Shown here: piece by piece, positions 14,530 through 31,041 of the stretch
Layout: every line of letters starts with the position of its first letter
Position numbering within the stretch: the stretch's first letter is position 1
DNA from: an uncultured Candidatus Binatia bacterium
Lineage (GTDB): Bacteria > Desulfobacterota > Binatia > Bin18
Reading direction: 5' to 3'
Length of the DNA stretch: 64,000 nucleotides
NCBI GenBank assembly: GCA_965214605.1
Contig: OZ243961.1
Coordinates: forward strand, 1,600,001 to 1,664,000
Notes under the pieces: model-generated
The model's input: the letters and a program-made list of their open reading frames with translations, nothing else
Database searches by the model: none
Told to the model about the DNA's origin: nothing
Position numbers and translations under genes: made by a program

Positions 14530-14603
<74 letters not shown>

Positions 14604-14651
14604 CCTCGCCAGCAGAGAGTCTGAGGACTCCCCTCTCTAGCATTTTTTCCA

Positions 14652-14725: not shown

Positions 14726-14799
14726 ACCGGAAGAGGTCTACCATACCTGCGTCCGACACCGCAGGCAAGTCCCAGTCTGACCGTAGCTCACCTCGTCCG

Positions 14800-16311
14800 C
14801 TAGCCGAGAAAGAAACGGGTCGAGCGGTCGGCAAAATCAAAAACTGGAGCCCAGTAAACGCCTAAGACAATCGTAGCAACACTTAATAGGGCCAAGATTG
14901 AGCCGTTATGCAGGTCAAGCCTCACCTCGCCCTCTACTCCAACCGGATTGTCAAGAAACATCGCCCTCACAATACGGGCATAGTAGTACAGAGAGACAAC
15001 ACTATTGAGAATGCCGACGACAGCGAGATAGTAGAACTCTTCTTTGATGACCGCGGCAAACAGATAGAACTTGCCGATGAATCCACCTAGTGGGGGTAGA
15101 CCCGTCAAAGAGAACAGGAAAACCCCCATCGCAATAGCCGGCAGCGCTCCCCCACGCCACGCCAGACCCCGGAATCCGTCAAGGTCCTCGCGCCCGGTAT
15201 TATTGGCCACGACAAGAACGACGACAAAAGAGCCCAGAGTCATCAGATAGTAGACAATCAGGTAGAACAGCATCGCCCGCAAACCGTCGTTGCTCAAGAC
15301 CACAAATCCCATCAGGATATAGCCCGCATGGGCGATGCTAGAGTAGGCCAACAGACGTTTCACATTGCTTTGATTCAGCGCAGCTAAATTTCCCAGCGTC
15401 ATGGTGATCATAGCGATCACCAGCATAAACTGCGGCCATTCCACTCCGGGCAGGAACTGCCAGACCCCATTGTCACCCAGCTGCGAGAGAGCGGGGTAGA
15501 AGAAGCGTATCAGCAACGCGAATCCGGCCGCCTTTGAGCCAACCGCCAAGAAGGCTGTGACCGGAATAGGCGCGCCGTGATAGACATCGGGGGCCCACAT
15601 ATGGAAAGGCACGGCCGAGATTTTATAGCCAAATCCGGCCAGAATGAGCACGAGCGCAATGAAAACCGTTAGTTGATCGGGGTTACCCTGAAACAGAGCG
15701 GTATTAATCTCAGCATAGTCCAGGCTGCCGGCCAGACCGAAAATCCAGCTCATGCCATAGATCATCGTGCCCGAAGCCACCCCCCCATAGATCAGGTATT
15801 TCAGCGCAGCTTCGCCAGAGCGACGGTTCTGCCGCAGATAGCCAGTGAGGATATACGAGGTGAGGCTGACAAATTCGAGCGCCACATAGGCAATCAGTAA
15901 ATTTGTCGCCGAGGCCATGAAAAACATGCCTAGGGTGCTAGCCAACAGGATGGCGTAATACTCGCCCTGATCGGAGTCACGGATCTCTCGTGAGCTCAAA
16001 GACATCCAGATCGCTCCCACGGCAGATAGCGACAGGATCACCTTGAAGAAAATCGCAAAATTATCAATCGCCACCATGCGGTGAAACAGCCAGCCTTCAC
16101 CAGCTCCGGGAAGACCAGCAATCAGGCGAAACCCAAACACGGACAGCCCGGAGGTAAAGACGAGGGCCATGGTCACGCCAATCAGGGCAACATTTCCCAA
16201 CCGTTCCTTTTCTTCAACGAACAGATCTGCAATGAAAATAACCAGAATGGCCAGGACGAGAATCCCTTCAGGGTAGAAATACGGGAGGCTCTCAATACTT
16301 CCAAGATTCAT
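14800..16311 (-). CDS. nuoN: NADH-quinone oxidoreductase subunit N
   Basis: EAALKYL, FHMWAPDVYHGAP, KRLLAYSSIAH. Confidence 0.95.
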   Translation of the reverse strand: MNLGSIESLPYFYPEGILVLAILVIFIADLFVEEKERLGNVALIGVTMALVFTSGLSVFGFRLIAGLPGAGEGWLFHRMVAIDNFAIFFKVILSLSAVGAIWMSLSSREIRDSDQGEYYAILLASTLGMFFMASATNLLIAYVALEFVSLTSYILTGYLRQNRRSGEAALKYLIYGGVASGTMIYGMSWIFGLAGSLDYAEINTALFQGNPDQLTVFIALVLILAGFGYKISAVPFHMWAPDVYHGAPIPVTAFLAVGSKAAGFALLIRFFYPALSQLGDNGVWQFLPGVEWPQFMLVIAMITMTLGNLAALNQSNVKRLLAYSSIAHAGYILMGFVVLSNDGLRAMLFYLIVYYLMTLGSFVVVLVVANNTGREDLDGFRGLAWRGGALPAIAMGVFLFSLTGLPPLGGFIGKFYLFAAVIKEEFYYLAVVGILNSVVSLYYYARIVRAMFLDNPVGVEGEVRLDLHNGSILALLSVATIVLGVYWAPVFDFADRSTRFFLG

Positions 16312-16341
16312 AGTACGCTCCGCGGGCTTAGACCTGCGCGG

Positions 16342-17883
16342 CTAACGGAGCGCAACCGCGCCGTCCGAGACCGCCGCCTCGATAAGACTGTTTAAATGCT
16401 GGAGCGAAGCATTCATCAGATCCAGGACGGCGTGCGGGTAAACCCCGAGGATAATCACAATCGCCCCTAGTGGGACCAAGGTGCTGAGTTCGCGATTCGA
16501 GATCTCGCTCAGATGCATCTCTTCATAGTCATCCCTGGGCTGACCAAGGAACATCTGTTGGATCGTCCACAGCAGATACGCAGCGGTAAAAATGATGGTT
16601 ACTGCGCCCAAGATAGTGGGAATCTTATACTGCTGCCACGCTCCAAGCAGCACCAGAACCTCGGAGATAAAGGCTGACAGTCCAGGTAACCCCATCGCAG
16701 CAAAGAAGGCCAGGGCGACGACCCCAGTATAGACGGGCATGACTGAAGCAAGTCCACCAAAGCCATCGATCCGGCGATGATGGGCGCGATCATAGATCAC
16801 CCCGACCAATAGGAAGAGCATGGCGGTAATCGTTCCGTGGTTAAACATCTGGAGCACCGCTCCGTTGATGCCCTGGGGGGTGAAGGATGCCATGCCCAGC
16901 ATGACATAGCCCATATGGCTGATGCTGGAATACGCCACCAGCTTTTTCAGGTCTTTGGGTTCATTGAAGCATTGGGCCAACGCGCAGAACGCTCCGTAAA
17001 TAATATTCCAGGCACCAAGCGCGGCCAGAAAATAGGGAGCGAGCAGAAAGGTTTCTGCCGGTAACAACGGATAATTAATCCGCAGAATGCCATACGTACC
17101 CATTTTCAGCAGCACTCCAGCCAGAATAACAGAAATAGCCGTTGGGGCTTCGACGTGCGCATCGGGCAGCCAGGTATGCAGAGGAAAGGCCGGAATCTTG
17201 ACCGCAAAATTGATGAAGAGTGCAACCCACAAGATCTGCCCCATGGTCATGCCAAACAGGACCGGATCAGCCCCGAACGTCTTTGCCGCCTCGGGAAGCT
17301 TGGTCAGATCAAAAGAGAAGCCGGACTGGAAGTAGAAGACGAGCATGGCGACGAGCATCAGCACGCTGCCGAACATCGTGTACAAAAAAAACTTGATCGC
17401 CGCGTACTCCCGACGCGGCCCTCCCCAGATACCGATCAGAAAGTACATCGGGATCAGCATCAACTCCCAGAAGATGTAGAACAGAAAGAAGTCTAGGGCG
17501 CAAAACACGCCAACCATTGCAGTGTCAAGCAGTAAAAATAGGGCAAAATAGGCTTTAACCGCCCGGTCGATCTCCCAGGAGGCCAGAATGCAAATAGGAC
17601 ACAGCAGTACCGACAGGAGCACCATGGTGATGCTCACTCCGTCAATACCTACAAAATAGTAAATATTAAACGAGGTAATCCACGGTACCTGGACCACAAA
17701 CTGTAAGCCGGTATTGGAACCGTCAAAGGCCGCATACAGGTAGATACCACACAGCAGGGGAGGAATGGTAAATCCCAGAGCAACCCTTTTGATCAGCTCA
17801 TGCGCCTGGCTCGGCAGACACCACAGAGCGATCATCCCTAGCAAGGGGAAGAAAATAATCAGCGTTAACACATAACTTTCCAT
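16342..17883 (-). CDS. nuoM: NADH-quinone oxidoreductase subunit M
   Basis: FWELMLIPMY, HTWLPDAHVEAPT, LLKMGTYG. Confidence 0.95.
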   Translation of the reverse strand: MESYVLTLIIFFPLLGMIALWCLPSQAHELIKRVALGFTIPPLLCGIYLYAAFDGSNTGLQFVVQVPWITSFNIYYFVGIDGVSITMVLLSVLLCPICILASWEIDRAVKAYFALFLLLDTAMVGVFCALDFFLFYIFWELMLIPMYFLIGIWGGPRREYAAIKFFLYTMFGSVLMLVAMLVFYFQSGFSFDLTKLPEAAKTFGADPVLFGMTMGQILWVALFINFAVKIPAFPLHTWLPDAHVEAPTAISVILAGVLLKMGTYGILRINYPLLPAETFLLAPYFLAALGAWNIIYGAFCALAQCFNEPKDLKKLVAYSSISHMGYVMLGMASFTPQGINGAVLQMFNHGTITAMLFLLVGVIYDRAHHRRIDGFGGLASVMPVYTGVVALAFFAAMGLPGLSAFISEVLVLLGAWQQYKIPTILGAVTIIFTAAYLLWTIQQMFLGQPRDDYEEMHLSEISNRELSTLVPLGAIVIILGVYPHAVLDLMNASLQHLNSLIEAAVSDGAVALR

Positions 17884-17918
17884 GGAGACTCCTCAAGCTT
17901 CCTCGAGCCTCACCGCCC

Positions 17919-20108
17919 TCAAACAGTATTCTCCTGGGTCGGCGCCGGACGGGCTGGACGGCGGGGAGCGAACAGCGCAATCAAACCGATCACCACCAGC
18001 ACGACAACGAGGGTGAGAGCGACGTTGATCAGCATCTGAGGCGCCAAGCGCGGCAGGAACTGCGCCACCGCTACACCGCCAACAATCACGTATAAGTAGA
18101 CATTAATGCCGCCCGTTTGGACCCGACGGAGACGATTGCCTATGGCAAAGGTCGCATTGGCGGTAATATTAATAAGCCCGTCAATAATACCATTATCAAA
18201 CATGCCAACGATCGACCCGACCCCAGATATGACCTTCGCCGTCCCATCCACAATGCCGTCAATGACGATCCGATCAAAGGCCGACCACAGCCGTGACACA
18301 AAGAGCGAAAAGCGAACGAAGGTCGCCGCGTAGATCTCGTCAATATAGTACTTATTAAAAACGGTCGTATACAGCCATCCCCCGCCCACCGACGCGAACA
18401 CGTCTGGCGACAGGGTCTTCCAGTAGTACAGTCTGGCCGACAGAAAGACGCCCAACAGGGCAATCCCCACCGACGCCAACATCAACACATACTCCATGAC
18501 AGGCGCCCCGTGACCGTGCGCCGCCCCAGCGTCATGCCCGCTGACGTGACCCGTCCCAGCAAAAACCGGCTCCAACCACTGCTCAAAGCGCAGACTCCCA
18601 CCTAGGGCGTGAGGGATACCTAATAGGCCGACCAGGACTGCACCGGCGGCCAGGACAATAAGCGGATAGGTCATCACCGGCGGAGATTCATGCAGATGTT
18701 CTTGGGTATGGGAGTCGGCCCGATTCTCACCGAAGAAGACCAGGAAAACCTGACGACCCATGTAGAAAGCGGTCATGCCAGCGCCGAGGAATCCTAAAAG
18801 CCACAGCACCTGATGCCCCCCCGAAAAGGTCTTCCACAGAATTTCGTCTTTCGAGAAAAACCCGGAGAAAGGCGGCAGACCCATTAATGCCAGGGTTGAA
18901 ATCAGGAACGTCCAATAGGTGGTCGGCATCTTATCTTTGAGACCGCCCATCTTCCGCATATCCTGCTCATCACCCATAGCATGAATCACGCTCCCCGAAC
19001 CAAGAAACAAGCATGCTTTAAAAAACGCGTGGGTAAAGACATGAAAGAAGGCCGCCGCGTACGCCCCCACCCCAACCCCGAGGACCATATAGCCCAGCTG
19101 GCTGACGGTCGAGTAGGCGAGCACCTTCTTAATATCGTTCTGGGCCAGACCAATAGTTGCGGCAAACACCGCGGTCAGCGCCCCAACCGTGGCGATGATC
19201 TGGAGTGCGGTCGGTGACAGCGAGAACAGGAAGTGCATCCGGCACATCATATAGACCCCGGCCGTCACCATCGTTGCCGCGTGTATGAGTGCGCTGACAG
19301 GGGTCGGCCCGGCCATGGCATCGGGCAGCCACACATAGAGCGGAATCTGGGCGGATTTCCCTGCCGCGCCAATAAACAGAAAGAGGGCAACCAGAGTCGC
19401 AGCAGACACACCGAAAACCGCTACCTGTGGATCAGTGAGGACTCCAGCATGGGCTTCCATCTCCCGGAACACAGCGGAGCCGTGGCCCATAGAGCTGAGA
19501 GCCCAGAAGGCGGTGAAGATACCTAGGGTGAAGCCGGCATCGCCTATCCGGTTGACAATAAAGGCTTTGTTTGCCGCCGAGGTATTGGCCTGCTCCTTAT
19601 ACCAGAAGCCGATCAGCGCGTATGAACACAAGCCGACCCCCTCCCAGCCGACAAACAACAACAGCATATTGTCGGCCAAGACCAGGGTTAGCATGGCAGC
19701 GGTGAACAGATTCAAGAAGGTAAAAAAGCGCCAGTAGGCATCATCATCGTGCATATAGCCGATGGAGTAGATGTGGATCAGCCCACCAATGCCAGTCACA
19801 ACTAGAATCATGACCGCCGAGAGCGGGTCGATCCAAAAGGCGATATTCACTTGCAGATCGCCGAGGTCGATCCAGCGCAGGGTGGTGTCCAGCAGAAAAC
19901 GCTGGGCCGGTTCGAGGTTATACACCTGAACAAAAGCCACCAGCGACAGCACAAAAGATATGCCAACCGCACCAACCGCGATACAGTGATTGGCCGTCTT
20001 GCCAAGATGCTTTTGGATAAGAGCGCCACCTATCCCGTTGATGATGGCCCCCAGCAGCGGGAAGAGGACGATCCAGCGCAAATACGAGACAAGGACGGGA
20101 TGCTCCAT
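17919..20108 (-). CDS. nuoL: NADH-quinone oxidoreductase subunit L
   Basis: GWEGVG, KSAQIPLYVWLPDAMAGPTPVSALIHAATM. Confidence 0.96.
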   Translation of the reverse strand: MEHPVLVSYLRWIVLFPLLGAIINGIGGALIQKHLGKTANHCIAVGAVGISFVLSLVAFVQVYNLEPAQRFLLDTTLRWIDLGDLQVNIAFWIDPLSAVMILVVTGIGGLIHIYSIGYMHDDDAYWRFFTFLNLFTAAMLTLVLADNMLLLFVGWEGVGLCSYALIGFWYKEQANTSAANKAFIVNRIGDAGFTLGIFTAFWALSSMGHGSAVFREMEAHAGVLTDPQVAVFGVSAATLVALFLFIGAAGKSAQIPLYVWLPDAMAGPTPVSALIHAATMVTAGVYMMCRMHFLFSLSPTALQIIATVGALTAVFAATIGLAQNDIKKVLAYSTVSQLGYMVLGVGVGAYAAAFFHVFTHAFFKACLFLGSGSVIHAMGDEQDMRKMGGLKDKMPTTYWTFLISTLALMGLPPFSGFFSKDEILWKTFSGGHQVLWLLGFLGAGMTAFYMGRQVFLVFFGENRADSHTQEHLHESPPVMTYPLIVLAAGAVLVGLLGIPHALGGSLRFEQWLEPVFAGTGHVSGHDAGAAHGHGAPVMEYVLMLASVGIALLGVFLSARLYYWKTLSPDVFASVGGGWLYTTVFNKYYIDEIYAATFVRFSLFVSRLWSAFDRIVIDGIVDGTAKVISGVGSIVGMFDNGIIDGLINITANATFAIGNRLRRVQTGGINVYLYVIVGGVAVAQFLPRLAPQMLINVALTLVVVLVVIGLIALFAPRRPARPAPTQENTV

Positions 20109-20111
20109 AGC

Positions 20112-20435
20112 TTAGCCCTGCAGACGGTCGGTTGCCTCAACGTCAATCGTTGAAAAGTTTTGGTAGATGCCAAGCACGATCGCTAAGCCGATCACGGCTT
20201 CCGCGGCCGCCAGCATAATCACAAAGACCGAGAATACCTGACCGTCATACTCGCCAGAAGAGTAATGCGAAAAGGCGATATAGTTGATATTGGCCGAGTT
20301 CAAGATCAGCTCCACACCGAGCAGAATCCCGATCGCGTTCCTGCGGGTCAGAACACAATAAAGGCCAAGCGCGAAGATGATCAAACTGACGAGCAAAAAG
20401 TGGCGGAGCCCGATAGCGAGCAGAACTTCGTCCAT
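20112..20435 (-). CDS. nuoK: NADH-quinone oxidoreductase subunit K
   Basis: RRNAI..VELILN, AAAEAVIGLA. Confidence 0.94.
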   Translation of the reverse strand: MDEVLLAIGLRHFLLVSLIIFALGLYCVLTRRNAIGILLGVELILNSANINYIAFSHYSSGEYDGQVFSVFVIMLAAAEAVIGLAIVLGIYQNFSTIDVEATDRLQG

Positions 20436-20515
20436 AACCGTCCGTTCAGCGTAGAAGGTGAGAGAAAAGTCGTCCCCTCATAAAGGGGAATGGGCAAAAA
20501 ATCAAGGGAGGTCGG

Positions 20516-21025
20516 TTACGATGTCGGCGTCTGTCCGCGGATTTCCTTGCGCGATATGACGATCGCCCCAATTAGTGCCACTAACAGCACGACCGATGCC
20601 AGTTCAAAAGGCAAGATATACGGGCCCAGGAACGCCTGCCCAATACCAGCAGTGGTCGGTTCAGCCGACGTCGTAGCGAGGTGGCTCCAGTTCGCCCCGA
20701 CCACACACGTCCCCATAACCCCGGTGACAAGGACTACAAAGATCAGCGCCGGGACAGGCCCGACCACGCGGTTTGATATGGCGACATCAGAAATACGGTG
20801 GGTCAGCATGACCGCGAAAATCAGCAGTACCAGAATCCCACCAACATAGGTGAGGATTTGGACAATGGCGACGAAGTCCGCTGCCAACATGGCGTACATG
20901 CCAGCCACCCCGAGCAAAGTCCCGAGTAAGGCAAAGGCTGAATAGACCAGGTTTCGTGAAAAGGCAACAATAGCGGCCGAGCCAATGGTCACCCCGGCAA
21001 TCAAATAAAAGACCAGTGCACTCAT
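20516..21025 (-). CDS. nuoJ: NADH-quinone oxidoreductase subunit J
   Basis: ADFVAIVQILTYVGGI, PFELASVVLL. Confidence 0.94.
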   Translation of the reverse strand: MSALVFYLIAGVTIGSAAIVAFSRNLVYSAFALLGTLLGVAGMYAMLAADFVAIVQILTYVGGILVLLIFAVMLTHRISDVAISNRVVGPVPALIFVVLVTGVMGTCVVGANWSHLATTSAEPTTAGIGQAFLGPYILPFELASVVLLVALIGAIVISRKEIRGQTPTS

Positions 21026-21057
21026 AATAGCGGTTCTCGGGCTCTGCCCCCCGCGCT

Positions 21058-21663
21058 CTAGGCTGCGTTGTCGGACGCTTTTTCGGCTTCTTCCTGTCGG
21101 GCAGCCTTATATCTTTTCATATCAATCGGCTCCGCATAATCCGCGATATAGGCTAGACCACGTTCCAAAATCGGAGCAATTGCAGGATCGGTTTCTTCCC
21201 CCTTTTTGGCCTTATAGGCAGCAACCGGGGCGGCCACATAGTGGCGAATCAAACTTTCCAGGGAGTAATCGGCGCCTTCAAACTCGGTCGTATGGTGAAT
21301 CGATCCGGTTGGACAGGCTTCGCTGCATAAGCCGCAGTACATGCACTTGGCAATATCAATGTCAAAGCGGACAAGGTCCATCTGACGGGTTTTCGGATCT
21401 TTTGGAGCGTCAATAACAATGCAGTCAATCGGACACGCCCGCTCACAGGCCAGACAGCCGGTACAAATTTCGAGATCAACCGCCAAAATGCCCCGATAGC
21501 GGGGAGGGAGGGTATCCTGAACCCGGACAGGTGTGCGGTCCGGATACTGGATGGTGTACGGCTTACGTACAAAATGCGAACAGGTGATGCTCATCCCCTC
21601 AAAAATCGTGGTAACCGCGTCGGAGAGATTTTTGAAGTAGCGACGAACGCTCGTATTCGCCAT
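21058..21663 (-). CDS. nuoI: NADH-quinone oxidoreductase subunit I (2x[4Fe-4S])
   Basis: CTGCLACERACP and CMYCGLCSEACP; TIQYP. Confidence 0.93.
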   Translation of the reverse strand: MANTSVRRYFKNLSDAVTTIFEGMSITCSHFVRKPYTIQYPDRTPVRVQDTLPPRYRGILAVDLEICTGCLACERACPIDCIVIDAPKDPKTRQMDLVRFDIDIAKCMYCGLCSEACPTGSIHHTTEFEGADYSLESLIRHYVAAPVAAYKAKKGEETDPAIAPILERGLAYIADYAEPIDMKRYKAARQEEAEKASDNAA

Positions 21664-21672
21664 ACCACACTC

Positions 21673-22860
21673 CTAAATAGCCGGGTTAAAGTACAGCTCA
21701 GGCCGGGCGCGCCGGATATGGAAAACGACCCGTCGAAAGAACTGCACGACAATGACGACAAACACTAGGCACATCAGATACCGCAGCCAGCTACTGCCGT
21801 GCGGCCAGATAACCATGAGGACTGCCGTGCCCACAATATTGATGAAGCCAATCGGCACCAAATACTTCCAACACAGCGACATCAGCTGATCGACCCGAAC
21901 GCGCGGCAGGGTTGCCCGCAGCCACATGGCAAGAAATGCCCAGAAGTAGGACTTGAGGAAAAACACCGCGAACTGCGAAATATTCAGCAGCACGACATTG
22001 TCGGTCCAGATCGGCACATGCCAACCACCCAGAAACAAGGTCGTCATCACCGCCCCGATCACATACAGCGTACCCCATTCGGCCAGGAAGAACAGCGCAA
22101 AACGTATTCCGCTATATTCGGTCGCAAAGCCGGCTACCAACTCAGATTCGGCTTCCGGAATGTCGAATGGGGTACGGTTCGCTTCGGCCAGAGCCGACAC
22201 ATAGAAGATCAGGGCGGCAATAAAGGTGAACGGGTTATGAAACGCGTACCAATCCCACGGAGCCCAGCCCTGCTGCTGGATAATGCCCTGCATGCTCAGC
22301 GTACCGGCTAGCAAAACAATGGGGACAATGGCCAATCCGGCCGGGATTTCGTAGCTGATGACCTGAGCAGCAGAACGAATCCCGCCTAACAACGACCATT
22401 TGTTATTCGACGCCCAGCCCGCCATCAGCACCCCAACCACCGACAGAGCGGTCATGGCTGTCAGGTACAGAATACCCACGTTTAGATCGGCAATGATCAG
22501 ACTGCTGCTAAAGGGCACAACCACAAAGGTAGCGACAAAGCCCCACACCAGCAGATAGGGGGCAAACCGAAACAATGGACGGTCGGCGGCGTCAGGAACA
22601 ATGTCCTCTTTGAGGATATTCTTGAGCCCATCGGCAATGCCCTGCAACACCCCTTGGGGACCAACTCGGTTCGGCCCGATGCGTGACTGAATACGCGACC
22701 ACACCCGACGCTCAAGCCAGACCGTGATCGGCACCATCGGCATCACAAAGCCAAACACAAGGATCAGCCCGAACACCAGCATTCCCCCGGCATACACCAC
22801 GTCTGCAGGCACCCCGGCAAACCACCCGTTGGTCATTAATCTGTCAAAGAGTCCCTGCAT
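21673..22860 (-). CDS. nuoH: NADH-quinone oxidoreductase subunit H
   Basis: RIGPNRVG, AEANRTPFDIPEAESELV, RATLPRVRVDQ. Confidence 0.96.
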   Translation of the reverse strand: MQGLFDRLMTNGWFAGVPADVVYAGGMLVFGLILVFGFVMPMVPITVWLERRVWSRIQSRIGPNRVGPQGVLQGIADGLKNILKEDIVPDAADRPLFRFAPYLLVWGFVATFVVVPFSSSLIIADLNVGILYLTAMTALSVVGVLMAGWASNNKWSLLGGIRSAAQVISYEIPAGLAIVPIVLLAGTLSMQGIIQQQGWAPWDWYAFHNPFTFIAALIFYVSALAEANRTPFDIPEAESELVAGFATEYSGIRFALFFLAEWGTLYVIGAVMTTLFLGGWHVPIWTDNVVLLNISQFAVFFLKSYFWAFLAMWLRATLPRVRVDQLMSLCWKYLVPIGFINIVGTAVLMVIWPHGSSWLRYLMCLVFVVIVVQFFRRVVFHIRRARPELYFNPAI

Positions 22861-22915
22861 GGCGTCGCTCTGCCTACCCTACTCGTCCACTTTTGTCTAG
22901 GTCACCAACCGACGG

Positions 22916-24070
22916 CTAGCGGTCGACCTCCGGCGCGACCACATCAAAACTGGCAATCAGGGCAATCAGGTCGGCGATCATCAGGCCCTGGCTGACTTTA
23001 TCAACAATACTCATGGCAGAGAACGAGCCGGTTCGGATCTTGGTCCGGTACGGAAACTCAGTCCCGTCACTCACCACGTACCAGCCCATATCGCCCCGCG
23101 AGCCTTCAATCCGCACATAGACGTCGCCGGCCGGCGGCTTGAGCTTACGCGGGACTTTTGCCAACACCGGCCCATCGGGGATCATCGCCAGACACTGTCG
23201 TACAATTTTGCAGCATTCCTTGAGTTCTCGGATACGGGTCATATAGCGGTCAAAACAGTCGCCCAGTTGACCCATCTCCCCGGTGCCGACCGGAATATCA
23301 AAATCTAGCTCCGAATAGATCGAATACGGCTCATCACGACGCACGTCGTATTTGATCCCGCAGGCGCGCAGATTTGGTCCGACCAGATTATAGTTAATCG
23401 CGTCCTCTCTGCTCACCACCGCCACATTGGCTAAACGTTCCACATAAATCTTGTTGTACGAGATGAGGTCGTTATACTCGTCAACCAATGGCTCAAACTG
23501 ATCCACAAAGGCGAGGACGTTGTCAGCATAATTCGGCGGCAAATCCCAGGCCACACCACCGACTCGCATATAGTTGAAGGTGAGTCGCGCCCCACATAAC
23601 TCTTCTAGCAGATTGTTAATTTTCTCCCGCTCACGGATGGCGTGCAGAAAAGGCGTATAGCCACCGATATCCATGACCATCGTCCCGACCGAGAGCAAAT
23701 GGCTCGCCATCCGGCCCAGCTCACAAGCAATCACCCGACAGAACTCACCCCGTCTGGGCACCTCAATACCGGCCAGCCGTTCGCACGCCATACCCCAGCC
23801 CTGGTTACACTGCATGGCCGACACATAATCGACCCGATCAGTGTAGGGCATAAAACCGTGGTAGCCGACCTTTTCGGAAATTTTTTCAATGGAGCGATGG
23901 AGATAGCCGATGTCAGGAATAGCGGTGCGCATGACCTCGCCGTCCGCCTTTACCACAAAGCGCAGCACGCCGTGCGTGCTCGGGTGCTGAGGGCCCATAT
24001 TCAGGGTCATTTCTTCGGTGGCCAGTCCCTCTCCACGTTGGACCTCAACCTCATAACCTGCCAGACTCAT
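22916..24070 (-). CDS. nuoD: NADH-quinone oxidoreductase subunit D
   Basis: [21 protein letters not shown]-terminal EVDR; no NiFe-binding CxxC. Confidence 0.95.
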
Positions 24071-24129
24071 ACCATTCTCCTGTGGTCAGCGGTTTTGACG
24101 AACAATGCTCAGATTCGAGCCAAACCGTG

Positions 24130-24636
24130 TCACTTGAGCAGACTCTCGCGCCGGGTGCTAATGCCGTGGTACTCTTCGGGCTCCACAAAATCTTTGCGTA
24201 GCGGATGCCCAACCCAGTCTTCCGGCATGAGCAGACGGCGCAGATCTGAATGGCCGGTGAAATTGACCCCAAGCAAGTCGTAAATTTCACGCTCTAGCCA
24301 GTTTGCCGCCTTCCACACGTCTTCAACCGAAGGCATCTCGGGCGCATCCCGCGGGACATCGACTTTTAGCACGATCTGATGCCGGTGGGGGTATGAGTAC
24401 AGGTGCAGCACTACCTGGATTTTCGCGTCTTTGATGAGATCGACGCCTGACATGTTTGACAAACAGTCAAAGGCCAAATCAGCCTCCTGTTTGAGAAAAC
24501 GGCAGATGTCGGCCGTCAGCTTGGGCTGAATACTACAGTACGGATTCAGCGCTTCCTCGTCACGGGAGACAAGAGCCTCGGCACCAAAACGCTCGGTGAT
24601 TTTATGGAAAATATCGGTTGGGGACATAGAAATCAC
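24130..24636 (-). CDS. nuoC: NADH-quinone oxidoreductase subunit C
   Basis: ANWLEREIYDLLGV.F.GH.DLRR, GHPLRKDF. Confidence 0.95.
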   Translation of the reverse strand: MISMSPTDIFHKITERFGAEALVSRDEEALNPYCSIQPKLTADICRFLKQEADLAFDCLSNMSGVDLIKDAKIQVVLHLYSYPHRHQIVLKVDVPRDAPEMPSVEDVWKAANWLEREIYDLLGVNFTGHSDLRRLLMPEDWVGHPLRKDFVEPEEYHGISTRRESLLK

Positions 24637-24669
24637 ACAGACAGGAGGTCAGCTGTGGGCCACATGGGA

Positions 24670-25173
24670 TTATGCTGCTTGGATTTGGGCCGGCGCTTTT
24701 TTCACCAACCAGCGTTCTTGCATCATCTTTTCCTGGAGTTTGAGCAAACCTTCGGTCAAAGCCTCGGGTCTGGGTGGACAGCCAGGTACGTACACATCAA
24801 CCGGAATCACTTTATCCACCCCGTCACATACCGAGTAGGCGAGCTGAAACAGACCTCCACAGTTCGAACAGCTGCCCATCGAAATCACATATTTTGGATC
24901 GGGCATCTGGTCGTACAGCACCTTGGTGCGGAGCGCCATTTTGAGGGTCAGTGTTCCAGCAATAATCATCATGTCGGACTGTCTCGGTGTCGCCCGAGGC
25001 GCCGCTCCAAACCGCTCTAAATCGGCCCGTGGTCCACCGGTTTGCATCATCTCGATGGCACAACACGCCAGACCAAACAGCATATACCACACCGAAGATT
25101 TCCGAGTCCAATTCAGAACCTCGTCAACCTTTGTGGTAATCACCATCTCCGGTACACTATTGACAAGCGACAT
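24670..25173 (-). CDS. nuoB: NADH-quinone oxidoreductase subunit B
   Basis: [28 protein letters not shown]. Confidence 0.95.
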
Positions 25174-25207
25174 GAATCCTCCTCAATACGCTCTCGAGCG
25201 CAGTCTC

Positions 25208-25633
25208 TTAGGCAGCTCTGGGGAGCGCCGGTTCCTCTTCTGTCTGCTGGACCTGGAGGCGCTTAATCCATTCCAGATCCCGCTTCTTCCAGACATACAC
25301 CAGCCCGACACCAAGAATCCCGAGAAAGAGAAAAATCTCCGTCATGGCAAACAACCCGTTGCCAGCCAGCACAAAATCCCGAAATGCCACCGCAACCGGA
25401 TAGATAAAGGCGACCTCAATATCAAAAATCACAAAAACAAGAGCGATAAGATAAAACCGGATATTGAAGTTAATCCACGCACTGCCGGTCGGCAGCTCGC
25501 CGCACTCGTAGGTGGTTAGCTTTTTGGCCTCAGGGTTATGGGGGCGCAAAAAGCTGCCTAGGATAAGATGAAAGGCACCCAGACCGAGCCCGATGAGGGT
25601 GAATACTAAGACATTGCCGAAATTAAAATACAC
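25208..25633 (-). CDS. nuoA: NADH-quinone oxidoreductase subunit A
   Basis: YECG, FYLIALVFVIFDIE; GTG start at 25633 after an AGGAG RBS. Confidence 0.94.
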   Translation of the reverse strand: MYFNFGNVLVFTLIGLGLGAFHLILGSFLRPHNPEAKKLTTYECGELPTGSAWINFNIRFYLIALVFVIFDIEVAFIYPVAVAFRDFVLAGNGLFAMTEIFLFLGILGVGLVYVWKKRDLEWIKRLQVQQTEEEPALPRAA

Positions 25634-25637
25634 CGCT

Positions 25638-26222
25638 TTACTCCTGACCGACATTCACGCCGTTTTCCTGCATCTCCCCACCCTGGCCGTTGGAGCAGGT
25701 GGGAGCGGTGCCAAACGGCGCGGCTTCTCTATATCCTCCCTGTCCACGATGGGCAAGCTCTTCCCGGAGGCCGGCCCTATCAGCAATCTGCCCGAGCGAG
25801 ACACTCGCTAGGTATTCGGCAAGCCGCCGCTGGGCTTCGCCCCAGACAGAGATCTGGTGACACACCTCGCAGTACCGACATACCTGTTTACCCTCTTCGA
25901 GGCATTCCATCAGCAGGAGAGGGCCTTCAAGGCATTCATAGACCTCCTTGAGGTTGATGCACGCAGCCGGTTTCTTGAGGCTGAAACCGCCTCGGGCTCC
26001 CATATACGACTCCACCAGATTGCCTCCGGCGAGTTGCTTCATAATTTTCGACAGAAAATGGGAGGGAATATCCTGTTTGATCTGGATTTCGCGCCGAGAA
26101 ATGACTGTTCCATACGGCTGAGCAGCGAGGTAGGACAGGGCTCGTACGGCATAATCGACCCGTTTGCCGATGTTCATCAGCGAGCTGCGCTCCACCGATT
26201 TCGGCTTGCCTGTCTTGCTCAT
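25638..26222 (-). CDS. Rrf2-family transcriptional regulator with Cys cluster (probable Fe-S sensor)
   Basis: DYAVRAL, winged HTH with GARGGFSL, C-terminal C-x7-C-x2-C-x2-C. Confidence 0.9.
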   Translation of the reverse strand: MSKTGKPKSVERSSLMNIGKRVDYAVRALSYLAAQPYGTVISRREIQIKQDIPSHFLSKIMKQLAGGNLVESYMGARGGFSLKKPAACINLKEVYECLEGPLLLMECLEEGKQVCRYCEVCHQISVWGEAQRRLAEYLASVSLGQIADRAGLREELAHRGQGGYREAAPFGTAPTCSNGQGGEMQENGVNVGQE

Positions 26223-26233
26223 ACCTCTTGCCT

Positions 26234-26764
26234 TTAGGCAGCCATCCCTCGAAGCTTTTGCTTCTGTGAATGAATCTTTCTCTGGAGGGCCATCAAGGCA
26301 TCCAGGACATTTTCTGGACGGGGCGGACAGCCCGGCACATAGACGTCGACCGGAACGATGCGGTCAATACCAGCCACGGTGGTGTAATTGTCATAAAATC
26401 CACCGGTCGAGGCACACGCCCCAAAGGCCATCACCCATTTGGGCTCGGTCATTTGTTCGTATACCCGCTTTAGAATAGGCGCCTGACGACACGTCACCGT
26501 CCCTATCACCATGAGCAGATCGGCTTGACGCGGACTAAAACGCGGCAGTAGGGCCCCGAAGCGATCAATGTCGTAGGGTGTCATCGACAGGGCCATATAT
26601 TCCATGGCACAGCACGCCGTGGCAAACGGATACGGAAAGATAGAGTATTTCCGCGCCCAGCCGATGGCCTTGTCAATTTGGGTGAGGACAACCGCGTCGC
26701 CAAGGAGGGCTTCATCCCCGCCTTGCAGACGCGGGGTCGTGGTCAAGGTCTGGTTATGTTCCAT
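26234..26764 (-). CDS. nuoB: Second, divergent NuoB paralogue
   Basis: [33 protein letters not shown]. Confidence 0.9.
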   Translation of the reverse strand: MEHNQTLTTTPRLQGGDEALLGDAVVLTQIDKAIGWARKYSIFPYPFATACCAMEYMALSMTPYDIDRFGALLPRFSPRQADLLMVIGTVTCRQAPILKRVYEQMTEPKWVMAFGACASTGGFYDNYTTVAGIDRIVPVDVYVPGCPPRPENVLDALMALQRKIHSQKQKLRGMAA

Positions 26765-26799
26765 TGTCTGACCTCGTGGTCCAGCGTGGACGCTGGCAG

Positions 26800-27204
26800 C
26801 TACGCAGCCTCATCGCCCGACTTGTCGTCCTTCTCACGCCAGTCTGCCACAGCTGATTTAATCGCGTCCTCGGCCAAGACCGAGCAGTGAATCTTGACTG
26901 GCGGCAGGGATAATTCCTTCACAATCTCGGTATTTTTGATCTTGTAGGCTTCTTCGACCGTCTTTCCTTTGACCAGCTCGGTCACATAGCTGGAAGAGGC
27001 AATCGCCGAGCCGCAGCCGAAGGTTTTGAAGCGGGCATCCTCAATGACCTCGGTGTTAGGGTTGATTTTGAGCTGCAGCTTCATCACATCCCCACACTCA
27101 GGGGCACCAACAACACCGGTGCCAACATTATCTTCGTCTTTGGTAAAACTGCCAACGTTCTTGGGATTTTCGTAGTGCTCAAGTACCTTATCTGTGTAGG
27201 CCAT
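26800..27204 (-). CDS. iscU: Fe-S cluster scaffold IscU
   Basis: MAYTDKVLEHYENPKNVG, GAPECGD, KTFGCGSA, LPPVKIHC. Confidence 0.96.
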   Translation of the reverse strand: MAYTDKVLEHYENPKNVGSFTKDEDNVGTGVVGAPECGDVMKLQLKINPNTEVIEDARFKTFGCGSAIASSSYVTELVKGKTVEEAYKIKNTEIVKELSLPPVKIHCSVLAEDAIKSAVADWREKDDKSGDEAA

Positions 27205-27268
27205 AAGCTGCTCCTTTCGGGACACGCCCCTCGTCATAAGACTCAGAATATGTCAATTCGTGTCGCTA

Positions 27269-27298
27269 AATATAGACTGTTAGAGTCTAAGTTGTCAA
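27269..27298 (-). promoter_or_regulatory. Promoter with overlapping palindromic operator upstream of iscU
   Basis: Minus strand TTGACA-ACTTAGACTCTAACAGTC-TATATT; palindrome TAGACT-N5-AGTCTA. Confidence 0.75.
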
Positions 27299-27318
27299 CG
27301 TGGCCAAGGTCAGACTTC

Positions 27319-28038
27319 TTACCACTTCTCATATTTTACCGCGCGGCGCTCATAGCCGGCGGTCCGCAAGAGGTCACGGAGCTGTAAGATCCGATTGCCA
27401 ATCCCGCAAATATAAAAATGGCGAGACCAGTCAGTGTTGCGTTTGACATAGCACGCTTCGACATGAGTGAGAAGATCGCCCCGTAGTCCGTCCCAGTGCA
27501 GAGAGGGGTGACGCAAAAGAGGATGGAAGGTCAACACGGCGTGCGAGCGGGCCCACCCTTCCAACTGTTCCCGATACAGCAGATCTTGTTCGTGGGCCGT
27601 TCCATAGACCAGGACAAGGGGCCGCTGCGGACCACTATCAAGGGCCCGCCGAAGCATGGGCCGAATAGCCGCAATCCCAGTCCCCTCGGCAATAAAGACG
27701 CACTCAGCCAGCGGGGCTTTGTCAAGCACAAAAGCACCCCAGGGACCGGAAAAAGACAGCGTATCGCCGAGTCTTCGGGTGAATAAATAATGCGAACCCG
27801 GTCCACCGGGTACACAGTTCAAACAGATTTCCAGCAGCTCTTCATCTTCGGGATTCGAAGCAATCGTATACGCCCGAGTCAAAGGTTTCCCTCTTCCCGG
27901 TAACTGAAAGGACAAGAACTGGCCCGGTCTGAAGCTCAGACGTTGGTCGGCGTGGAGGCGCAGAAAAAACGAACGGGTATCGGGCGCATGCTCAACAATG
28001 CGCTCAATGACAGCCTGGTAGGGTGGAGCCTGTTGCAT
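27319..28038 (-). CDS. FNR-like FAD/NAD(P)-binding oxidoreductase
   Basis: FRPGQF, RAYTIAS, EGTGIA, FYICG, C-terminal aromatic residue (YEKW). Confidence 0.88.
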   Translation of the reverse strand: MQQAPPYQAVIERIVEHAPDTRSFFLRLHADQRLSFRPGQFLSFQLPGRGKPLTRAYTIASNPEDEELLEICLNCVPGGPGSHYLFTRRLGDTLSFSGPWGAFVLDKAPLAECVFIAEGTGIAAIRPMLRRALDSGPQRPLVLVYGTAHEQDLLYREQLEGWARSHAVLTFHPLLRHPSLHWDGLRGDLLTHVEACYVKRNTDWSRHFYICGIGNRILQLRDLLRTAGYERRAVKYEKW

Positions 28039-28059
28039 GGAGGAGGAGAAGCTGGACTC

Positions 28060-28413
28060 TTACACCTGTTGGTTAATCGTATACTTGGGGACGAGGATGG
28101 TGATATGCCCAGCCTCAATGACAGCCTGACAGCCAAGCCGAGAGCTGGGCGTCAAACCCGGCGCTTTATCCAGCATATCCTCCTCAGATTCTTCGCTCTC
28201 CGAGAGATATTCTTCACCAGCCTTGATAATCACATGACAGGTCGTACACGCGCAGTGACCGCCACAAGCGTGTTCAAGCGTGAGCTGATGGCCGAGGAGT
28301 ACATCCAGAATCGACCCCGGTTGTCCGTCGTCTTGAAAAGGCGCATCGGCCGGATCGAATTCGATGAGCCGTTCCGGATCACCTGTCTCGAAGAGCACCC
28401 GTAGCGTAGCCAT
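28060..28413 (-). CDS. fdx: [2Fe-2S] ferredoxin, ISC/adrenodoxin type
   Basis: EHACGGHCACTTCHV, EEDMLDKA, SRLGCQ. Confidence 0.92.
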   Translation of the reverse strand: MATLRVLFETGDPERLIEFDPADAPFQDDGQPGSILDVLLGHQLTLEHACGGHCACTTCHVIIKAGEEYLSESEESEEDMLDKAPGLTPSSRLGCQAVIEAGHITILVPKYTINQQV

Positions 28414-28420
28414 CGGGGTA

Positions 28421-29470
28421 TCACAACTGCTGCAGCACCTGCTCAGCAATACTCACAAACCCCCGACTCTGGGGGTGATCAGGCTGAGAGACGACGAGGG
28501 GCGTGCCGCTATCCCCGCCGGAGACAATATCGCGTAGCAGCGGAATTTCGCCCAGCAGGGGCACCTGAAACTGCTCGGCCACCTGCCTGCCACCCCCCTG
28601 ACTAAAAACGTGGGCATGGTGCCCACACGAACTGCACACCAGATAGCTCATGTTTTCAACCACCCCTAGCACGGGCACCTTGACCTCTTCGAACATTTGC
28701 ACGCCACGACGGACGTCCATCAGGGCCACGTCTTGAGGGGTGGTGACGATCACACCGCCCGAAAGCGGAGCTTTTTGCACAATACTCAGCTGAGCATCGC
28801 CCGTACCAGGCGGCAGATCTATGACCAAAACGTCCACCTCTCCCCACTCGACATTCCGCAGAAACTCGGTCAGCAGTTTATCGACCATCGGCCCGCGCCA
28901 CACCGCCGCCTGCTCATCGGCCAGCAGGAAGCCCATGGACATCACTTTGATACCATACTTTGTGAGGGGAATAATCTTTTTTTCTGGGGTGCTTGTAGGC
29001 CGCTCCTTTAGGCCTAGCATCAGGGGCACACTAGGACCGTACACATCAGCATCCAAAATACCGATGCGTTTGTTGATCGAAGCCATCGCTGCCGCCAGAT
29101 TCACCGATACGGTGGATTTTCCGACTCCCCCCTTCCCGCTCGCCACCGCAATAATGTGCTCAATGCCCGGAAGACGAGGGGTGGACGGGTGACCCTGAGG
29201 TTGAGTCCGAGGCACCGGTCGCTCGTCGCCACCAGGCTGCAGGATCTCGACCTCGATCGGCAACGCAATCTGGGACGCCAGCGTGGCCTTCACGTCGCGC
29301 CGGATCTGCTCAATAACGTCTTTATTTCCAGTCGAGGGCGCAACCTGGACCACAACCCGTGACACTCCAACCGCAATGTCCTTGACCATCCCAAAGGAAA
29401 CAATATCGCGGCTAAATCCGGGATATTTAACATTTTTGAGGAACTCCATCAGTTCTTGCGGGCTTGGCAT
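28421..29470 (-). CDS. Mrp/ApbC/NBP35-family Fe-S carrier ATPase, copy 2
   Basis: N-terminal DUF59-like domain, SGKGGVGKST, DLPPGTGD, ENMS..CSSC. Confidence 0.93.
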   Translation of the reverse strand: MPSPQELMEFLKNVKYPGFSRDIVSFGMVKDIAVGVSRVVVQVAPSTGNKDVIEQIRRDVKATLASQIALPIEVEILQPGGDERPVPRTQPQGHPSTPRLPGIEHIIAVASGKGGVGKSTVSVNLAAAMASINKRIGILDADVYGPSVPLMLGLKERPTSTPEKKIIPLTKYGIKVMSMGFLLADEQAAVWRGPMVDKLLTEFLRNVEWGEVDVLVIDLPPGTGDAQLSIVQKAPLSGGVIVTTPQDVALMDVRRGVQMFEEVKVPVLGVVENMSYLVCSSCGHHAHVFSQGGGRQVAEQFQVPLLGEIPLLRDIVSGGDSGTPLVVSQPDHPQSRGFVSIAEQVLQQL

Positions 29471-29479
29471 ACGTCTCTC

Positions 29480-29794
29480 TTATTCTTGTCGGGACTCTTT
29501 TGGCCGGCTTTCCGCGTCTTTCCCCAGTTCTCTCAGGTAGTCAAAAGTATAGATACCATTCTCGCAGTCTTTCCAGACGATATTCAGGGCGTAGTTACCA
29601 ACCGGGCGGATATCCACCAGCTGCGGGTCGTCGACAGTGACAAAATGACGCTCCCCGCTATGGCCTTGGCACATCGCACACGGGCACCAGCCGCGCAGAT
29701 AGGCGAACGAAAACCGGCTCAGCTCGTCATCATCCCACAGGATACGCAGCTGCTTTTCTTCGTCGATGGGGGTCACCAATGTTGGTTTGGGCAT
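29480..29794 (-). CDS. DUF971 / GBBH-N-like small Cys protein
   Basis: LRGWCPCAMC, PVGNYAL, GIYTFDYL. Confidence 0.85.
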   Translation of the reverse strand: MPKPTLVTPIDEEKQLRILWDDDELSRFSFAYLRGWCPCAMCQGHSGERHFVTVDDPQLVDIRPVGNYALNIVWKDCENGIYTFDYLRELGKDAESRPKESRQE

Positions 29795-29826
29795 ATCCGT
29801 TCGCCTTACATGTATAGCGCAGAGAG

Positions 29827-30906
29827 TTAGTGTACGGACTGACCCCGGCGTTGAACATTGAGTTCATCGGCTTCCATAACACGCTGGGCAATCGCCCTGA
29901 ACTCCTGCGAAACAGGATGGTCAGGATTGGCAAGAATCAGCGGATTGCCACGATCACCGCCGAGCCGCAAATCTTCAACCAGTGGGACCTCGCCCAATAC
30001 AGGCAGGCCGATCTTTTTCGCCCCGCCCCGGCCAAAAACCTCTTCCTGATAATTGCACTCAGGACAGATAAACAGACTCATGTTCTCAATGACGCCCAGA
30101 ATGGGAACCTGCACCTGCCTGAACATGGTAATACCACGCCGCACATCGAGCAGCGCAACATCTTGCGGGGTGGTGACCACTACCCCGCCGTTGAGCGGAA
30201 CTTCTTGGGCCAGCGTCAGAGCAATATCACCCGTGCCCGGTGGCAGATCGACAATCAAATATTCCAACTCACCCCAAATCACGTCACGCAAAAACTGACG
30301 GATAATACCCATCACGATCGGCCCTCGCCAAATGACCGGGGACTTGTTATCCACAAAAAACCCCATGGAAATGAGGCGTATTCCATGTTGTTCAACCGGA
30401 TAGATCTTCTTGTTGTGCCCTGCCCGAGGCGTCGCCTGGGTCCCCATCATGAGGGGGACACTCGGCCCATACACATCCGCATCAAGCAGTCCGACAGTCT
30501 TGCCTAAAGCCCCCAGCGCCAAGCTCAGGTTCACCGCCACCGTGGACTTGCCAACCCCGCCCTTGCCGCTGGCAACCGCAATAATACGCTGTACGCCAGC
30601 CACCACCGTGGGCTCTTTCATTTGGGGTCTCGCCTGCGCTCCGTGCTGCGCGTGCGGCTGGGCTTGCCCGCCGGGGATATGGACGTGCACCTGTTTAACC
30701 CCTGGGGTGGATGACAGCGCCGTCGTAATCCGGGCTCTCAGGTGCTGCAGTACCCGCTCCTGCGCGTTCGTTGTCCGTAGATGGACAACGACCGTACCGT
30801 CTCGAATGCCGATACTGCCAACTAGGCCGAGCGTCACGATGTCGTGTTTTGAACCGGGATACTCAATCTGTGTGAGCTGATCGCGAATTTCCTCTTCGCT
30901 TGGCAT
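29827..30906 (-). CDS. Mrp/ApbC/NBP35-family Fe-S carrier ATPase, copy 1
   Basis: N-terminal DUF59-like domain, SGKGGVGKST, DLPPGTGD, ENMS..CPEC. Confidence 0.93.
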   Translation of the reverse strand: MPSEEEIRDQLTQIEYPGSKHDIVTLGLVGSIGIRDGTVVVHLRTTNAQERVLQHLRARITTALSSTPGVKQVHVHIPGGQAQPHAQHGAQARPQMKEPTVVAGVQRIIAVASGKGGVGKSTVAVNLSLALGALGKTVGLLDADVYGPSVPLMMGTQATPRAGHNKKIYPVEQHGIRLISMGFFVDNKSPVIWRGPIVMGIIRQFLRDVIWGELEYLIVDLPPGTGDIALTLAQEVPLNGGVVVTTPQDVALLDVRRGITMFRQVQVPILGVIENMSLFICPECNYQEEVFGRGGAKKIGLPVLGEVPLVEDLRLGGDRGNPLILANPDHPVSQEFRAIAQRVMEADELNVQRRGQSVH

Positions 30907-31011
30907 ACGTCTTCCTTGAGAAACCGGGTCGTAGGCCCAGAGAAAGAGAGCTCGCCTCTCTTTTCTTTTTTCAGGTTTTCAGTATCTCGGAGAGCTTTTT
31001 CATGAGCTCAA

Positions 31012-31041
31012 AATATAGACCTTAAAGGTCCATATTGTCAA
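31012..31041 (-). promoter_or_regulatory. Promoter with overlapping palindromic operator upstream of the mrp cluster
   Basis: Minus strand TTGACA-ATATGGACCTTTAAGGTC-TATATT; palindrome GACC-N5-GGTC; same architecture as 27269-27298. Confidence 0.75.

Follow-up and report, generated by a model that had tools for sequence, protein, structure and literature searches.

Do genes for iron-sulfur (Fe-S) cluster assembly that run straight into a complex I operon form a toolkit private to that respiratory enzyme, or do they serve the whole cell? The question is raised by a 64,000-nucleotide (nt) stretch of DNA, called the window below, from the 4.37-Mb, 99.99% complete genome of an uncultured Candidatus Binatia bacterium (contig OZ243961.1, positions 1,600,001 to 1,664,000). 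Between 14800 and 31041 all long open reading frames (ORFs) lie on the minus strand, and 19 genes follow one another with intergenic gaps of 3-81 nt in the order mrp1-DUF971-mrp2-fdx-FNR-iscU-nuoB'-rrf2-nuoABCDHIJKLMN (Table 1). An earlier reading of the letters (the original prediction) had described this tightly spaced, co-directional run, and the ORFs and Pfam names agree with its list gene for gene. It had further proposed a system dedicated to building clusters for this complex I and tying its expression to Fe-S, O2 or NO status; the linkage and the sensing in that interpretation fit our results, while the dedication does not. We propose instead, with a probability of about 0.68, that the run joins the promoter-proximal half of the cell's sole iron-sulfur cluster (ISC) system, the nuoB gene of a second complex I (nuoB') and an 11-subunit nuo operon, under the control of a regulator that resembles RisR.

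Fe-S genes of the run and the ISC system

The product of iscU scores above the IscU equivalog cut-off and is the sole NifU_N match in the genome, i.e., the only U-type scaffold. A search found no SufB/D in this genome while finding them in all 14 control genomes, and no NifU C-terminal domain is encoded in it. Since there is a single U-type scaffold and no SUF system, the Fe-S block must serve all Fe-S proteins of the cell. In addition, mrp1 and mrp2 are the only strong PF10609 matches genome-wide, and KGGVGKS and both CxxC cysteines are invariant between them. The rest of the ISC set, iscS-iscA-hscB-hscA, stands in a row 1.55 Mb from the run, as consecutive Aminotran_5, Fe-S_biosyn, DnaJ and HSP70 matches, and lies behind a third copy of the operator described below; with IscU as the sole scaffold, this makes the genes a housekeeping ISC regulon. 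The half found in the run would supply IscU, two Mrp/ApbC carriers, the DUF971 protein, and a ferredoxin of the ISC type together with the NAD(P)H reductase that goes with it. For fdx itself, the ATG at 28413 is the more likely start over the TTG at 28449. An attractive but wrong reading is thus corrected: the cell builds its clusters in general with these genes and has no other system for it, so they are not a private complex I toolkit.

The two halves may once have been together. In four of the ten loci with sequence upstream of mrp1 (L026, L030, L034 and L035), the adjacent upstream gene ends like a cysteine desulfurase, a call made on C-terminal sequence, and the operator precedes this gene. 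By tblastn, iscS stands before mrp1 (82% identity) only in L054. Because the desulfurase reading concerns C-termini and the tblastn support comes from one locus, a once-contiguous ancestral isc locus is suggested, and we put it no more strongly.

Operators and the Rrf2 regulator

We scanned positions 14000-32500 for promoters, calling a site promoter-like at 9 or more of 12 consensus matches, a procedure that sees sigma-70-like sites only. The two best sites are P_mrp and P_iscU, and they bear out the two matching promoter/operators that the original prediction had placed at the head of the mrp and iscU blocks, since both have the same -35 and -10 hexamers and a palindrome in the spacer. This composite motif occurs exactly twice in the 4.37-Mb genome. 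It is found upstream of iscU in 12/12 relatives' loci that contain iscU, and the P_mrp site is kept within the genus as well as in L029. Five other genomes carry the composite pattern two to three times each, compared to zero to one time for a reversed-pattern control. Extra operator sites head mrp-DUF971 in G025 and G027, a DUF59 gene in G011, a pyridoxal-phosphate enzyme gene in G008 and the gene of an unidentified protein in G014.

To scan the genome with the operator columns alone, we collected 39 composite sites from 36 relatives' loci and built a matrix from the 32 distinct ones, which have the consensus TRGAC-N7-GTCTA within an 18-nt spacer. P_iscU scored best (29.9 bits), followed by P_mrp (24.8), a site just upstream of iscS (21.6) and, next, a site at 14.1 bits. 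The iscS operator was recovered without its -35 context and overlaps the -10 of a promoter-like site. The same scan gave no operator before nuoA, nuoA2, nuoF or nuoI2, nor inside rrf2. The operator is therefore restricted genome-wide to three ISC promoters. Two other patterns were tried and rejected: a looser palindrome, AGAC-N7-9-GTCT, has 189 genome-wide matches and is useless, and the Type-1 core known for IscR of E. coli matches P_iscU with one mismatch but has five window matches at up to two mismatches, where 6.6 are expected by chance, P_mrp not being among them.

The three cysteines of the window's Rrf2 (C-x7-C-x5-C) are invariant in 21/21 aligned sequences, and its fourth cysteine is not conserved among them. 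The three invariant cysteines align with three serines of chain 4cic_A, which we take to be a Cys-to-Ser mutant. The protein passes only the Rrf2 superfamily model; against the IscR equivalog TIGR02010 it scores 63.1 bits, with a cut-off of 207.55. The cluster ligands of IscR are C92, C98, C104 and H107 (PMC6599224), and the same 21 sequences have no conserved His at +3 after the third cysteine, so the IscR ligand set is not present as such. RisR of Myxococcus xanthus is an Rrf2 protein encoded upstream of suf that acts as a [4Fe-4S] holo-repressor of isc and suf, with Cys92, Cys102 and Cys108 as cluster ligands, and it binds the palindrome T(t/g)GAC-N7-GTCC(t/a), which has AT-rich flanks and overlaps the -35/-10 (PMC9973013). 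Judged by these described features, the window's Rrf2 resembles RisR as an Fe-S-type regulator. The 120 best homologs listed are all unnamed Rrf2 proteins, with no characterised one among them, and our results assign a probable function and an operator to this uncharacterised clade, which is widespread in uncultured Binatia.

Two features of the protein stand apart from this comparison. The orthologs share a conserved N-terminal extension, ERSSLMN, ahead of the usual Rrf2 start, and at its C-terminus the window's protein adds about 45 residues, a tail with little conservation beyond its genus. The genome also encodes a second Rrf2 of 154 amino acids (aa), whose best family is CymR, under the cut-off, and whose gene is divergent from a sulfite/nitrite reductase gene.

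By analogy with RisR and IscR, we infer that Rrf2 binds an Fe-S cluster through its three cysteines. The Fe-S-loaded dimer would most likely bind TRGAC-N7-GTCYA at the three promoters and block RNA polymerase, as RisR does, and a shortage of clusters, whether from iron limitation or oxidants, would strip Rrf2 of its cluster and release the promoters. As for the Fe-S sensing claimed in the original prediction, the type of regulator and the fit of the operator speak for it, while cluster binding and repression are carried over from RisR and IscR.

Complex I genes behind rrf2 and the alternatives

At the junction, 4 nt separate the rrf2 TAA from the nuoA GTG, which has AGGAG upstream, and the distance given earlier is thereby confirmed; the nuoA start codon and its Shine-Dalgarno sequence are kept in 17/17 relatives' loci examined. 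In these 17 loci the gap measures 4-123 nt and has no conserved -35/-10. It is again 4 nt in two more loci of the same genus and 18 nt in another family. The original prediction had staked the linkage on two findings: that no independent promoter or terminator separates rrf2 from nuoA, and that the two halves stay linked in relatives. Our scan found no promoter-like and no terminator-like site at the junction, and no promoter-like site on the minus strand of 25633-26800.

For the second point, we combined searches for rrf2 (at E 1e-30) and NuoD over 55 genomes of the family. Orthologs of both rrf2 and this NuoD (the latter with 82% identity or more) were found in 34/55 genomes, and in 33 of these 34 they lie within about 3 kb on the same strand; in the remaining one (G055) they are on separate short contigs. 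Five of the 55 genomes have the NuoD ortholog and no rrf2 match at this threshold, 13 genomes from five genera have rrf2 and only a second type of NuoD of about 40% identity, and three have neither or are too incomplete. The order and strand of rrf2-nuoA-N are kept in at least four genera and, beyond the family, in a second one. That second family is represented by G025, where an operator-bearing promoter is followed by a 2x[4Fe-4S] ferredoxin gene, nuoB', rrf2, an 18-nt gap and nuoA-N, with mrp-DUF971 elsewhere behind a second operator. The 33/34 linkage and the G025 locus mark the link as old and, wherever the enzyme occurs, as strict; the enzyme itself can be dispensed with. The 13 genomes without nuoA-N have the Fe-S block, nuoB' and rrf2, followed by tig where the contig permits. 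We considered and rejected a relocation of nuoA-N in them: the NuoD search gives only the second type there, which, as far as this query reaches, is an absence and not a move to another site.

The operon behind rrf2 holds nuoABCDHIJKLMN without nuoEFG; nuoE, nuoF and nuoG lie elsewhere. By textbook counts, such an 11-subunit isoenzyme carries three [4Fe-4S] clusters, compared to eight or nine in a NuoEFG-type enzyme. The 117-aa ferredoxin that opens the G025 operon is a candidate electron donor for the 11-subunit enzyme. Two peculiarities of the window's operon are recorded for completeness. NuoL (729 aa) continues at its C-terminal end for about 85 residues past the NuoL family models, which stop near residue 642, and the 80-nt gap between nuoJ and nuoK contains a 7-bp hairpin with a T-rich tract, which may be an RNA-stability element, an attenuation element or chance.

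The gene between iscU and rrf2 belongs to another enzyme. Only two NuoB homologs are encoded in the genome, both within the window; they share 40% identity and each keeps four cysteines. NuoB' passes the NuoB equivalog, retains CC...C...CPP with the N2 cysteines, and is linked to nuo genes. A second nuo operon, nuoA2-C2-D2-E-H2-J2-K2-L2-M2-N2, lies outside the window and lacks nuoB, nuoF, nuoG and nuoI, which are scattered over three other sites: nuoF-nuoG is about 63 kb from nuoA, and a second nuoI (nuoI2) is at 0.44 Mb. The B-less second operon is also found in G016 and G011; the latter genome is 100% complete and has no NuoB homolog besides nuoB'. Among 561 relatives of nuoB' in public genomes, we examined the contexts of the best 80 (74-99% identity; most labels read Binatia or Deltaproteobacteria, a few are stray). 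In 46 of these 80 loci nuoF is immediately 3' of nuoB', with a nuoG match also in 44; nuoF-nuoG is slightly further downstream in 2, the contig ends after nuoB' in 3, nuoB' is inside an isc context in 14, and it has other neighbours in 15. With nuoF and nuoG as its neighbours in so many of these loci, nuoB' is a genuine complex I subunit gene, and we identify it, from sequence and context, as the NuoB (N2-cluster subunit) of the second, NuoEFG-type complex I and not as an accessory copy. In one family, nuoB' has moved to between iscU and rrf2. This Binatia NADH-type complex I, with nuoB, nuoI and nuoF-nuoG detached from its operon, is one that annotation pipelines would call incomplete.

Around the scattered genes, we also observed that the orphan nuoI2 adjoins a ThiF-rhodanese gene, with an A-type Fe-S carrier gene about 3 kb off, and that six other Binatia loci have nuoI2 some 5 kb upstream of nuoB'-nuoF-nuoG. 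Just past the window end there are genes for a NuoE-NuoF fusion (580 aa) and a 931-aa molybdopterin subunit resembling formate dehydrogenase, with a Cas6-like ORF adjacent.

In the arrangement that we favour, nuoB', rrf2 and nuoA-N would all be read from P_iscU, nuoA-N by read-through, as the spacing suggests. Since nuoB' is the only NuoB gene for the second complex I and sits between iscU and rrf2, its product would be made together with IscU. We consider it doubtful, and offer it as a tentative extension, that in this order of Binatia complex I as a whole belongs to an Fe-S-status regulon, with the N2 subunit of the NADH-type enzyme and the N-module-less isoenzyme expressed from the IscU promoter under a RisR-like repressor, that cluster shortage raises the assembly machinery along with this cluster-cheap isoenzyme, and that the carriers of the Mrp, DUF971 and DUF59 genes recurring beside nuoB and nuoI are the bacterial counterpart of Ind1. 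One might speculate that the cluster-poor 11-subunit form spares Fe-S relative to the NuoEFG-type enzyme. If the operon fusion does mean regulation, a respiratory enzyme would be tied to Fe-S supply by gene order and not by a separate regulator or a small RNA.

The Fe-S genes could still be read in two other ways. One is the dedicated assembly line of the original prediction, with mrp-DUF971-mrp-fdx-FNR-iscU serving this complex I and an Ind1/NUBPL-like Mrp pair. The genes are indeed co-directional and tightly clustered, Mrp genes recur beside genes for complex I Fe-S subunits (mrp2-nuoB' in G008 and a fusion gene before a nuoI-like gene in G027), nuoB' is flanked in six genera by IscU and a DUF59/SufT-like gene, and complex I specificity has been described for Ind1 (PMC7980591). 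We nevertheless regard dedication as very unlikely and do not retain it. The scaffold is the cell's only one of the U type, SufB/D were not found and the strong Mrp proteins have no others beside them; iscS-iscA-hscBA share the operator; the Fe-S block is kept in 13 genomes without this enzyme; both Mrp proteins have the N-terminal DUF59 of ApbC/HCF101, unlike the architecture of Ind1; and G014 and G025 have nuoA-N, yet no mrp block at the locus. The other way is to take fdx and FNR out of the ISC system and make them the electron input of the 11-subunit enzyme, from NAD(P)H through FNR and ferredoxin to NuoI/NuoB. PMC11238625 treats the electron donor of 11-subunit enzymes as unsettled, the pair lies within the same gene run, and the G025 ferredoxin gene immediately precedes nuoB'-rrf2-nuoA-N. 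Even so, we find this improbable: fdx and FNR occupy the same place in four of five loci without nuoA-N (L032-L035; the fifth, L036, ends in iscU), the G008, G014 and G025 loci have nuoA-N but not fdx/FNR, ISC ferredoxin is the best family for fdx, and there is precedent for an IscR-regulated ferredoxin reductase in Fe-S assembly (PMC4521836).

Regarding the complex I genes, the order of the run could be inherited synteny with no regulatory meaning, nuoA-N being expressed from a promoter of its own, e.g., inside rrf2, and not responding to Rrf2. The gap of 70-123 nt in most relatives is enough for a start site, no operator precedes nuoA, the nuo half is absent from 13 genomes, and the consensus scan was limited to sigma-70-like sites. 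On the other hand, the gap is 4 nt here and in two loci of the genus and 18 nt in the other family, 25633-26800 has no minus-strand site reaching 9/12, the gaps have no conserved -35/-10, and order and strand are kept in 33/34 genomes from at least four genera plus a second family, which makes synteny alone unlikely in our view. Far less probable still is that nuoB' encodes no complex I subunit and instead an Fe-S carrier or co-sensor that derives from NuoB and acts with IscU and Rrf2. Its position, with iscU on one side and either rrf2 or a DUF59 gene on the other, would suit such a role, as would a third, NuoB-like gene within the suf operon of G027. Against it stand the orthologs immediately 5' of nuoF in 46/80 Binatia loci (nuoG too in 44), the passed NuoB equivalog with all four N2 cysteines kept, the 74-99% identity in the best 80 of 561 relatives, as expected of a core subunit, and the partner operon without nuoB in this genome, G011 and G016, with nuoB' as the only NuoB homolog in G011.

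Several points weigh against the reading that we prefer, in which a general ISC operon under a RisR-like regulator extends into complex I genes. The link is dispensable, since 13 genomes of the family have the Fe-S block without nuoA-N. A search for RNA data gave no run matching window positions 24600-28100, and an unrecognised promoter inside rrf2 is possible. The operator matrix is partly circular, because the regular expression that selected its sites fixes part of the motif. The ferredoxin scores under its family cut-off and both Mrp proteins fall just under the ApbC cut-off. The likeness to RisR is one of described features and not of compared sequences, and the cysteine spacing differs (x9/x5 in RisR and x7/x5 here); IscR differs too, with the failed equivalog (63 vs 207.6 bits) and an x5/x5 spacing plus His as opposed to x7/x5. 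Finally, it is not obviously adaptive to place a cluster-rich enzyme under a repressor that is lifted when clusters are scarce.

Table 1. Positions of the genes, promoters and further features discussed in the text (window positions unless a locus or contig is named)
Feature	Position	Strand	Description
P_mrp	31012..31041	-	TTGACA-N18-TATATT with spacer palindrome of the TRGAC-N7-GTCYA type; 11/12 consensus matches
mrp1	29827..30906	-	DUF59 + Mrp/ApbC P-loop; PF10609 324.6 bits, PF01883; ApbC model 327.8, cut-off 348
DUF971 (GBBH-like_N) small protein	29480..29794	-	PF06155 77.3 bits; CxCxxC motif
mrp2	28421..29470	-	DUF59 + Mrp/ApbC carrier; 46% identity to mrp1
fdx, ISC-type [2Fe-2S]	28060..28413	-	PF00111; best family fdx_isc TIGR02007 105.7 bits, cut-off 132.1
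FNR-type NAD(P)H:ferredoxin reductase	27319..28038	-	FAD_binding_6 + NAD_binding_1
P_iscU	27269..27298	-	TTGACA-N18-TATATT with the same spacer operator; 11/12 consensus matches
iscU	26800..27237	-	TIGR01999 213.7 bits, cut-off 192.4
nuoB'	26234..26764	-	NF011392 275 bits, cut-off 271; four N2 Cys present
rrf2	25638..26222	-	Rrf2 superfamily model; C-x7-C-x5-C
nuoABCDHIJKLMN	14800..25633	-	complete 11-subunit set without N-module; Pfam; nuoA GTG at 25633
NuoL	17919-20108		729 aa
nuoJ-nuoK hairpin	20473-20489		7-bp hairpin + T-rich tract
five tRNA genes (Pro, Arg, His, Lys, Leu)	14171..14726	-	between nuoN and tig-clpP-clpX
NuoE-NuoF fusion, molybdopterin subunit and Cas6-like ORF	L002 7898-12435 + 12397-13287		just past window end
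iscS-iscA-hscB-hscA	L044 7009-11162; C1:3179009-3183162		other ISC half
second nuo operon	L043 8553-18060; C1:3098553-3108060		outside window
nuoI2	L046 4981-5565; C1:440981-445129 region		second NuoI
A-type Fe-S carrier gene	L046 8728-9129		near nuoI2
second Rrf2	L045 5145-5609; C1:1181145-1181609		154 aa
G025 ferredoxin	L037 6001-6354		2x[4Fe-4S]; first operon gene
DUF59/FeS_assembly_P gene of a relative	L034 12091-12399	-	SufT-like, 102 aa
G027 locus from the suf operon to the nuoI-like gene	L127 (contig C207) 3868-15988		other Binatia family

Comparison with known systems

HCF101, ApbC/Mrp and Ind1 (NUBPL) are Fe-S carrier NTPases whose DUF59 and DUF971 architecture is set out in PMC7980591. 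With all three, mrp1 and mrp2 share the P-loop NTPase with CxxC, and with HCF101 and ApbC they share the N-terminal DUF59; Ind1/NUBPL has P-loop and CxxC without extra domains, and both Mrp proteins here carry FeS_assembly_P/DUF59. The C-terminal DUF971 of HCF101, with its CxCxxC, is a free-standing gene here and fused in G027; unlike the known systems, the run has two paralogs flanking the free DUF971 gene. Neighbourhoods in relatives add to this picture. In G008, mrp2 is immediately before nuoB'; in G027, a DUF59-ParA-DUF971 fusion (the HCF101 architecture) is immediately before a nuoI-like gene; and in six genera nuoB' and rrf2 have a DUF59/SufT-like gene between them. These associations hint that complex I is a prominent client of Mrp/DUF59 carriers, not that it has a dedicated system. 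Of the earlier suggestion that the Mrp proteins act like Ind1, the neighbourhood with nuoB' and nuoI-like genes lends some support to the idea, and the domain architecture does not. The genes named here are candidates for what matures bacterial complex I clusters and for when 11-subunit enzymes are used.

The DUF59/SufT-like gene encodes a conserved 102-aa protein in L034, and the same position is occupied in L027, L030, L032, L033, L035, L036, L055, L057 and L058; the window's genus and genus g8 have no such gene at this place. In the G027 locus, the order is rrf2-sufC-sufBD-sufS-sufU-DUF59-DUF59, followed by the NuoB-like gene, whose 153-aa product has a 19-residue internal deletion and keeps all four cysteines.

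The closest regulatory parallel is RisR (PMC9973013). It, too, is an Rrf2 protein with three conserved cysteines; its sites share the GAC-N7-GTC core, the AT-rich flanks and the overlap with the -35/-10 of Fe-S promoters; and it serves several Fe-S operons, as the three operator-bearing ISC promoters suggest for the Rrf2 described here. Like risR, orthologs of this rrf2 (59-60% identity) head a suf operon in the relatives G027 and G035, rrf2-sufC-sufBD-sufS-sufU, with the operator upstream. The difference is that here the gene ends the isc block and precedes the nuo operon, in a genome without suf. IscR of E. coli and Pseudomonas is likewise an autoregulated Rrf2 protein encoded with isc genes, and its operator lies between the -35 and -10, as at Pseudomonas site B (PMC6599224); here, rrf2 is last and not first in the isc block.

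Complex I-like enzymes of 11 subunits are known from Desulfitobacterium and as cyanobacterial NDH-1, with the same nuoABCDHIJKLMN and no nuoEFG (PMC11238625, PMC3144371). The operon in the window differs in that it stands immediately behind the gene of an Fe-S-type regulator and shares its genome with an enzyme of the NuoEFG type, the Fe-S subunits of which are encoded at scattered sites. PMC4453560 describes genomes that have nuoEFG once and the other nuo genes as two sets, and the present genome likewise has a single nuoE, a single nuoF-nuoG pair and the rest in two sets; in contrast to them, the second enzyme's nuoB, nuoI and nuoF-nuoG are each detached, nuoB lying in the isc operon. Both enzymes could in principle be served by the one NuoEFG set, an idea that appears in PMC4453560. 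Searches of open-access papers and bioRxiv turned up no account of an isc operon that contains nuoB or of nuo genes behind an Rrf2 gene. Altogether, the RisR/IscR-type regulon and the 11-subunit complex I are already known, and what is unusual is the incorporation of complex I genes into a general ISC operon.

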